64,000 nucleotides of DNA. Source: an uncultured Kiritimatiellota bacterium (lineage in GTDB: Bacteria; Verrucomicrobiota; Kiritimatiellia; RFP12; DVOR01). Location: NCBI GenBank assembly GCA_944389565.1, contig CALXMV010000001.1:51924-115923 (forward strand), in the 5' to 3' direction. The translations under genes were made by a program, and so were the position numbers. Under the pieces are notes generated by a model that ran no database searches, was not told where the DNA came from, and saw only the letters and a list, made by a program, of their open reading frames with translations. This document shows positions 22,340-23,599 of the stretch, piece by piece. Position 1 is the first letter of the stretch. Each line of letters starts with the position of its first letter.

Positions 22340-23599
22340 TCACTCCCACTCGATGGTGCCGACGGGTTTGGGGGTGAGATCGAAGAGCACGCGGTTGACG
22401 CCGGGGACCTCGTGGGTGATGCGGTCGGCCAGGCGCTCCATGAGGGGCCAGGGGAGGCGCTCGACGGTGGCGGTCATGGCGTCGACGGTGTTCACGGCGC
22501 GGATGACGCACGGCCACTCGAAGGCGCGCGCGCCCTCGCGCACGCCCACCGAGCGGACGTCGGGGATCAGGGTGAAGTACTGCCACACCTTGCCGCGCAG
22601 ACCGGCGGCCTCGAACTCCTCGCGCAGGATCGCGTCGGAGGCGCGCACGGCCTCCAGGCGGTCGCGGGTGATGGCGCCCAGGCAGCGCACGCCCAGGCCG
22701 GGGCCGGGGAAGGGCTGGCGGTAGACCATGCCCTCGGGCAGGCCGAGGGCCAGGCCGCAGGCGCGCACCTCGTCCTTGAAGAGCATCTTCAGGGGCTCGA
22801 CGAGCGCGAAGTTCAGGTCGGGCGGCAGGCCGCCGACGTTGTGGTGGCTCTTGACGGCCTTGGCGGTCTTGGTGCCACTCTCGATGATGTCGGGGTAGAT
22901 GGTGCCCTGGGCCAGGAAGGCGATGCCCTCGAGCTTGCGGGCCTCCTCCTCGAAGACGCGGATGAACTCCGCGCCGATGACCTTGCGCTTCTGCTCGGGG
23001 TCGGCCACGCCGGCGAGTTTGCCGAGGAAACGGTCCGTCGCGTCCACGTAGACCAGGTTCGCGCCCAGTTCCTCGCGGAAGACGCGCACCACCTGCTCGG
23101 GCTCGCCCTGGCGCAGAAGGCCGTGGTTCACGTGCACGCAGGTCAGCTGCCTGCCGATGGCGCGGATGAGGAGCGCGGCCACCACCGAGCTGTCCACCCC
23201 GCCCGAGAGCGCCAGGAGCACCTTGCCGTCGCCCACCTGCGCGCGGATGGCCTCCACCTGGTCGGCGATGAAGGCCTCCATCGACCAATTCCGCGCCGCG
23301 CCCGTCTTCGCCACGAAGGCGTCCAGGTCCGGCCGCGCGTCGGCCGCGTCGTCCACCGTGAGCATCGGCACGCCCGCGCCCAGGATGGCCTCCGAGGGCT
23401 CCAGCTCCTGCCCCTCGTAGGCCCGGCGCGGGCCCATCGCCAGGACGAACCCCCGCACGTTCGGGATCGCCGCCACCTGCTCGGCCGTCAGGTCATGCGC
23501 GTGCAGCTCCGTGTAGACGCCCAACGCGCGGATCTCGCGCGCCAGCTCCGTCGTCCGCGCGCTCCCCAAGTCAATGACGACAATCGTGTCCTGCTTCAT
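22340..23599 (-). CDS. guaA: GMP synthase (ATP pyrophosphatase domain intact; N-terminal glutamine amidotransferase domain truncated and lacking the catalytic Cys)
   Basis: [11 protein letters not shown] (PP-loop) and the conserved C-terminal dimerisation domain ending GTIEWE are present. The N-terminal ~100 aa resemble only the first half of a class-I GATase, and the position of the nucleophile Cys reads TVDDAAD. Confidence 0.8.

Follow-up and report, generated by a model that had tools for sequence, protein, structure and literature searches.

Guanosine 5′-monophosphate (GMP) synthetase (GMPS), the product of guaA, is both a drug target and a textbook model of glutamine amidotransferase (GATase) allostery and of ammonia channelling. 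Reviews describe it as occurring in two types only, namely as a two-domain or as a two-subunit enzyme (PMC10526850, PMC9312489), and in a survey of 730 genomes guaA was fused to its glutaminase in 100% of cases and without one in 0%, the corresponding figure for nadE without glutaminase being 44% (PMC3376133). The interface of the canonical enzyme is formed mainly by GATase helix alpha1, with its (K/R)(K/R)xRE motif, and by helices alpha11 (DxxES) and alpha12 (KD(D/E)V(K/R)) of the ATP pyrophosphatase (ATPPase) domain, the alpha1 motif forming, from its positions 1 and 4, salt bridges to positions 2 and 3 in that of alpha12 (10.1101/808618); alpha11, alpha12 and the subsequent lid loop bear catalytic residues (bioRxiv 10.1101/808618). 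All ATPPase modules studied function independently of the GATase (PMC10526850), and the ATPPase subunit of M. jannaschii alone forms GMP from NH4Cl with a Km of 4.1 mM and a kcat equal to the glutamine-dependent rate (10.1101/2022.02.27.481963). The subject of this analysis is a short guaA gene, with a much reduced GATase-coding part, found in a stretch of 64,000 nucleotides (the window in the following) from an uncultured Kiritimatiellota bacterium (assembly GCA_944389565.1, contig CALXMV010000001.1, positions 51,924-115,923, forward strand).

The 419-residue product of this gene combines an intact synthetase module with the remnant, or stub, of a GATase domain, and is, on a cautious judgement, probably an ammonia-dependent GMPS isozyme in which the pseudo-GATase stub has been kept as a structural cap. 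A first-pass annotation of the DNA had called the ATPPase and dimerization domains complete, and profile searches of the protein against Pfam and NCBIfam with their curated cut-offs bear this out: TIGR00884 (guaA_Cterm) scores 442.8 bits (cut-off 338.75) over profile positions 2-310 of 310, PF00958 (GMP_synt_C) scores 117 bits (cut-off 27) over positions 1-92 of 92, and all 53 positions of the synthetase and dimerization domains that are near-invariant (at least 95% conserved) among 51 canonical GuaAs are kept in the short family. The PP-loop, DxxES, KSHHN, KDEVR and C-terminal TIEWE motifs are invariant across 78 members of this family. The sole fixed differences from canonical GuaA near the active site are the replacement of F259 by H and that of D261 by N (E. 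coli numbering), giving the sequence CVHVNHG; both are found in 78/78 short forms, the canonical F and D being present in 82% of canonical sequences. The whole-protein equivalog NF000848 is also matched, at 506 bits against a cut-off of 400, but the database name ‘glutamine-hydrolyzing’ that comes with it is misleading, because the score stems almost wholly from the synthetase module. An exact-sequence look-up of the window protein returned no record.

The part that precedes the synthetase, only about 107 residues long, scores below the cut-off with both GATase models: PF00117 (class-I GATase) reaches 20.4 bits (cut-off 22.8) and covers only profile positions 1-77 of 190, and TIGR00888 reaches 38.6 bits (cut-off 172.15) over positions 1-76 of 188. 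In a comparison with the Protein Data Bank structure 7sbc, residues 3-82 align to 17-95 and residues 91-419 to 198-530; about 100 residues of canonical GuaA, with His181 and Glu183 among them, are missing at the junction (Cys86, His181 and Glu183 are numbered as in the E. coli GuaA used for the alignments). Cys86 aligns to Asp83 of the window protein, residues 1-107 hold no cysteine at all, and the His181 and Glu183 columns are gaps in all 78 family members. Since about 100 GATase residues are deleted, and Cys86, His181 and Glu183 with them, the short GuaA cannot be a glutamine-hydrolysing enzyme. The loss of the catalytic cysteine and of the half bearing histidine and glutamate had already been noticed in the first-pass annotation, where use of glutamine by the enzyme itself was regarded as improbable; both statements stand, no intact Cys-His-Glu triad being recovered by alignment. 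Its description of a shortened GATase domain is also right but can be refined, in that the last GATase helix (residues 92-99) is kept and the gap is internal, which points to an in-frame internal deletion and not to a C-terminal truncation of the domain.

Within the short family, the former cysteine position is occupied by D in 70/78 members and the next one by H in 66/78. This D-H pair is conserved in the clostridial members, in which the H-P-E motif also survives as a W/F-P relic; neither feature is family-wide, because the 419-residue window form has D83-D84 and has lost the relic. Conservation of another kind concerns the former domain interface, where R21 and R24 of the stub and D276 and E277 of the ATPPase domain are invariant in 78/78 short-family sequences; correspondence with the canonical motifs suggests D276/E277 as the salt-bridge partners of R21/R24. 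The AlphaFold2 (AF2) model of the stub, with block pLDDT (predicted local distance difference test) values of 76-96, contains strands at residues 5-12, 29-34, 48-55 and 79-83 and the terminal helix at 92-99. Superposition of the full model on two-domain GMPS crystal structures gives a TMq of 0.80-0.83, versus 0.62-0.67 on ATPPase-only subunits, so that the stub is predicted to be placed where the GATase normally sits.

With its own glutaminase lost, the short GuaA would convert xanthosine 5′-monophosphate (XMP) according to XMP + ATP + NH3 -> GMP + AMP + PPi (chemistry of the EC 6.3.4.1 type), ammonia entering from the solvent and directly reaching the adenyl-XMP intermediate. The intact synthetase and the missing glutaminase both suggest such an ammonia-dependent and glutamine-independent activity, for which the M. 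jannaschii ATPPase offers a precedent. The stub would no longer supply nitrogen and may instead act as a structural or allosteric cap, its helix alpha1 buttressing the catalytic helices alpha11 and alpha12 and the lid loop through contacts of R21/R24 with D276/E277. In ammonia-rich anaerobic habitats (gut, rumen, digesters) the short GuaA could serve as an ATP-saving isozyme by which glutamine synthetase is bypassed; bypassing glutamine would spare the ATP used by glutamine synthetase.

An origin of the short N-terminus in faulty assembly or sequencing, or in the decay of a pseudogene, can be given next to no credence. Artefacts do occur among the homologues, P0002 (539 residues) and P0044 (481 residues) being longer only through internal tandem duplications within the synthetase domain, which look like products of assembly. 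The architecture of the window protein, however, recurs in a 419-residue protein of 99% identity from an independent assembly (P0001), and a protein search returned more than 100 relatives of 418-441 residues from independent assemblies, including metagenome-assembled genomes (MAGs) of Kiritimatiellae, with those of Solibaculum mannosilyticum, Dysosmobacter and Anaerotignum at 70-75% identity to the window protein. A scan of one genome per species, made with an alignment of the N-terminus peculiar to the family, showed the short form in at least 573 species-level genomes. Among the matches listed, the carriers are mostly Oscillospirales and other Clostridia, in addition to Kiritimatiellae and Lentisphaeraceae MAGs, and the locus titles overwhelmingly name gut isolates or MAGs from gut, rumen or faeces; cultured isolates (Agathobaculum desmolans ATCC 43058, Intestinimonas massiliensis, Flavonifractor sp. 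An82, Acidaminobacter hydrogenoformans DSM 2784) and the complete genome AP018533 are also represented. The 78 full-length genes recovered from fetched loci are all intact (419-440 residues), and the ratio of non-synonymous to synonymous substitutions (dN/dS) is between 0.08 and 0.30 in every segment, figures (medians of pairwise Nei-Gojobori estimates, n=78) that are rough in absolute terms because dS is near saturation, the comparison between segments still being valid. Purifying selection acts on the stub to the same degree as on a genuine functional domain, its ratio being similar to that of the dimerization domain. The possibility of a frameshift, or of a GATase fragment lying displaced elsewhere, was considered and is excluded, since a tblastn search of every frame of the window with the GATase domain of E. 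coli GuaA matched only residues 5-85, at the start of the open reading frame (ORF) itself. Neither this search nor the independent assemblies leave much room for the frameshift or assembly error that the first-pass annotation had named as a possible cause of the short N-terminus, and the guanine plus cytosine (GC) content of the gene, 71%, matches the 69% of the window.

The surroundings of the short gene are variable. When the 1006 ORFs flanking the gene in 85 loci were clustered (more than 85 loci were viewed overall), no conserved neighbour emerged, and the four Kiritimatiellae-type loci (the window, L004, L092 and L093) present four different contexts. Neither guaB nor a recurrent GATase was found near the short gene when the 85 loci were searched by tblastn, the queries being the N-terminal part of E. 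coli GuaA, the M. jannaschii GATase and E. coli GuaB. The 64-kb window, searched with the E. coli GATase domain, has no other class-I GATase in any frame. No Rfam element scored above its gathering threshold upstream of the gene in the window and four loci, one unrelated tRNA aside. In 5 of 80 scanned loci, a second GMPS is encoded on the same contig at a distance of up to 10 kb. A full-length canonical guaA shares the contig with the short gene in L024, L048, L064 (an Intestinibacillus massiliensis isolate) and L072, so that the short form is a paralogue in at least some carriers. The canonical copy of L064, used as a query, retrieved named GuaAs of 513-514 residues from Agathobaculum desmolans, Dysosmobacter welbionis and Pseudoflavonifractor, that is from species or genera that also carry the short form; for A. 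desmolans this co-occurrence is based on species names, the look-up of P0277 having given metagenome contigs only. In L012 and L046 an unrelated-looking class-I GATase gene, with 28% identity to the M. jannaschii GATase sequence, is found about 4 kb away.

One locus is differently organized. In L067 (positions 8552-12111), from a MAG labelled Methanomassiliicoccus, purE, a guaAb-like gene, the short guaA and a gene for a guaAa-like GATase stand in a row, an arrangement that reflects either cross-domain transfer into an archaeal GMPS cluster or a binning error.

Several considerations weigh against an ammonia-dependent isozyme with a structural cap. The Km of canonical GMPS for NH4+ is generally poor, 26-174 mM in the enzymes of M. 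tuberculosis, E. coli and human (PMC10526850, 10.1101/2022.02.27.481963), and nothing in the short-family sequences proves an improved affinity for NH4+; the use of ammonia is something that we infer from sequence for every member of the family, and the function of the stub as a cap is deduced from motif conservation and the AF2 model. Furthermore, a canonical guaA coexists in at least some carriers, so that a need for the short form in making GMP is not obvious and its purpose could be a different one, and the position of the short gene of L067 between archaeal-type guaAb and guaAa would also fit a link to a separate GATase. The latter possibility, that the short GuaA is a synthetase subunit receiving ammonia from a glutaminase in trans (a class-I GATase encoded on its own, or else the corresponding domain of canonical GuaA), as in archaeal GuaAa/GuaAb, is rather unlikely. 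In its favour, there are two-subunit GMPSs the subunits of which come together only transiently (PMC10526850, 10.1101/2022.02.27.481963), so that conserved gene adjacency is not strictly needed, and the GATase genes of L067, L012 and L046 could be seen as candidate partners; but the neighbourhood of the short gene has no conserved GATase gene in the window and most of the more than 85 loci, the archaeal GuaAb subunits (2dpl, 6jp9, about 308 residues) have no such stub, and the stub is predicted to lie on the alpha11/alpha12 surface where GATase alpha1 docks, where it would hinder a second GATase. Ammonia dependence or a separate glutaminase were the two options left by the first-pass annotation, and they are still the two leading mechanisms. 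We lean towards ammonia because no GATase is conserved beside the short gene and the stub is predicted on the GATase docking surface; the likeness to the split archaeal guaAa/guaAb is not apt for most carriers, because a canonical glutamine-dependent guaA coexists in several genomes.

This coexistence also gives some ground to a partnership with canonical GuaA, for instance as a heterodimer formed through the C-terminal domains, or to a role in providing a synthesis of GMP that neither glutamine-analogue poisons nor a limited supply of glutamine would affect. Both genes occur on one contig in the four loci named above, and together at the species level in A. desmolans, the dimerization domain is intact and conserved, and the family has an HVNH signature fixed near the nucleotide site. 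A role of this kind is nevertheless judged quite unlikely, since every catalytic residue is kept, which would not be expected of a purely regulatory pseudoenzyme, no operon link between the paralogues is conserved, and no riboswitch or other Rfam element precedes the gene in the window and four loci. Still more improbable is a change of substrate or nitrogen donor, such as a different adenylated oxo-purine or an Asp-His chemistry at the former nucleophile elbow. The D-H pair of the clostridial members and the fixed H156 and N158 beside the PP-loop strand could be read in this way, but all XMP- and ATP-binding motifs, the C-terminal KPxxTIEWE loop included, are unchanged, the window protein has neither D-H nor the W-P relic, and the gene of L067 stands in a purine cluster.

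In a neighbour-joining tree of the synthetase module, calculated without support values, the window protein, the clostridial forms and P0122 form one tight clade, which is nested among canonical GuaAs and adjoins P0127, the Streptococcus GuaA cluster. This placement and the 70-75% identity between forms from different phyla suggest that the family arose in Bacillota and then spread horizontally; any transfer into the lineage of the window would not be recent, because the GC content of the gene agrees with that of its surroundings. Nine other short GuaA representatives of 394-436 residues (P0140, P0142, P0150, P0155, P0162, P0166, P0176, P0197 and P0235) have 42-50% identity to the window protein and a degenerate N-terminus of about 100-125 residues each, and in the same tree they lie dispersed among canonical GuaAs; P0142 is from a Victivallaceae MAG. 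These scattered forms could be the result of repeated, independent GATase decay or belong to one deep family.

The features of the short gene are collected in the table. A purine-rich AAAGGA precedes its ATG, and the next gene upstream lies only about 150 bp from this start codon.

Table. Features of the short guaA gene and its product, with positions in the window; residue numbers are those of the 419-residue protein, and dN/dS values are segment medians to be compared with one another and not taken as absolute.
Feature	Position	Strand	Evidence
Complete short GuaA coding sequence, 419 residues, ATG start, TGA stop (22340-22342)	22340..23599	-	uninterrupted ORF
Pseudo-GATase stub, residues 1-83, beta1-alpha1-beta2-alpha2-beta3-(alpha3)-beta4, ending at Asp83	23351..23599	-	PF00117, 7sbc alignment, AF2; median dN/dS 0.15 (residues 1-82)
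Stub helix alpha1, residues 16-25; R21/R24 are positions 1/4 of the (K/R)(K/R)xRE interface motif	23525..23554	-	78/78 invariant
Deletion junction, retained last GATase helix and linker, residues 84-107	23279..23350	-	alignments; median dN/dS 0.30 (residues 83-107)
ATP pyrophosphatase (N-type PP-loop) catalytic domain, residues 108-325	22625..23278	-	TIGR00884; median dN/dS 0.08
PP-loop SGGVDSS, residues 132-138	23186..23206	-	translation; invariant in alignments
Family signature H156-V-N158-H159 (canonical F-V-D-N, E. coli 259-262)	23123..23134	-	alignment
Helix alpha11 DIIES (237-241) and lid-loop VKSHHN (249-254)	22838..22891	-	invariant or nearly so, n=78
Helix alpha12 KDEVR, residues 275-279	22763..22777	-	78/78 invariant; motif KD(D/E)V(K/R)
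C-terminal dimerization and XMP-binding domain, residues 326-419, ending ...KPVGTIEWE	22343..22624	-	PF00958; median dN/dS 0.14

Directly downstream of the short gene and on the same strand (19817-22160), the window encodes a solute-binding protein fused to a permease (SBP_bac_3 and BPD_transp_1) and an ATP-binding cassette (ABC) ATPase of the polar amino-acid type. A link between the short guaA and this transporter was considered and set aside, the pairing being absent from the other Kiritimatiellae-type loci. Upstream lie a small PEP-CTERM-anchored protein and an overlapping ORF of 149 residues (23751-24495) and, beyond them, a divergent protein of 922 residues (24641-27409) without a Pfam match at E <= 1e-4. 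Farther along the window (32706-36138), three tandem paralogous ORFs of 411, 365 and 368 residues, with a repeat spacing of about 1.1 kb, no significant Pfam family and a GC content of 52-58% versus about 70% for the window, could represent an island that was acquired or an array of surface proteins that evolve fast; they are followed by a pilin-like N_methyl protein (36746-37501).

Among the clostridial loci, those of Solibaculum (L001-L003, positions 1-9746) have the short guaA just downstream of genes for glutamate synthase, type III and type I glutamine synthetases, an ANTAR regulator, dapF and an aminotransferase, a nitrogen-assimilation neighbourhood that is suggestive of an ammonia-linked role, but in that lineage only. 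Immediately 3′ of the short gene in Solibaculum (L001, 11450-17317) there is an integrative mobilisable element, and an element of the same kind is found immediately 3′ of the canonical guaA of Agathobaculum-like loci (L086, 4795-9911, and also L087-L091). These elements carry an HTH_3 regulator, a tyrosine integrase, a NikA-like protein, AAA_25 and a Mob_Pre relaxase, and the conserved 3′ end of both guaA paralogues seems to be an integration hot spot.

Taken at its widest, the proposal of an ammonia-dependent isozyme would amount to a third GMPS architecture: an obligately ammonia-dependent isozyme with a pseudo-GATase half-domain repurposed as a structural or allosteric cap, spread by horizontal gene transfer among gut and rumen anaerobes (Clostridia, Kiritimatiellae/Lentisphaerae and possibly Methanomassiliicoccus) and kept beside the canonical enzyme to uncouple guanine nucleotides from the glutamine pool, with GATase decay having perhaps occurred repeatedly in GuaA lineages. 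This broader view is a real possibility but is put forward tentatively. If true, it would imply a route to GMP that is insensitive to glutamine analogues. Whatever the outcome, a systematic misannotation is corrected, as hundreds of species have a ‘glutamine-hydrolyzing’ gene the product of which is unable to hydrolyse glutamine, and the metabolic models of the abundant gut Oscillospirales and of gut Kiritimatiellae are affected as regards the nitrogen source and the ATP cost of guanine nucleotides. The family also provides a natural experiment on the role of the alpha1-alpha12 interface for the synthetase, apart from nitrogen delivery. Short GuaAs are already present in the databases, but under a wrong name and apparently uncharacterized; the literature searched contains no description of a GATase-less GuaA, and the glutaminase-less state had not been recorded for GMPS in the genome survey cited above (PMC3376133).

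When compared with the known systems, the short GuaA is closest in its synthetase module to the two-domain GuaAs (EC 6.3.5.2; E. coli 1GPM and A. baumannii 7SBC), with 53-56% identity, the near-invariant residues kept and the same predicted fold and domain placement (TMq as above); its stub is homologous to the first half of their GATase and retains the interface arginines of alpha1. It differs from them in having no complete GATase or triad, and HVNH in place of FVDN. With the archaeal GuaAb subunits (P. horikoshii PH1347, 2DPL, and M. jannaschii, 6JP9) it shares the absence of a functional glutaminase on the synthetase chain and a high structural similarity (TMt 0.90-0.94), but the archaeal subunits are devoid of the 107-residue GATase-derived stub and have a dedicated GuaAa partner, whereas none was found for the short GuaA in the 64-kb window or in most of the more than 85 loci; L067, with its guaAa-like gene, is the exception, and it also has a guaAb of its own. 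The principle is not categorically new, the loss of a glutaminase in favour of ammonia being familiar from sister families. The single-domain, ammonia-dependent NadE has likewise kept its synthetase, lost its glutaminase and come to use free ammonia, but belongs to another family and is associated with another class of glutaminase. In carbamoyl-phosphate synthetase I, again a different family, free ammonia is used and a dead GATase-like domain is kept for structural or allosteric reasons.

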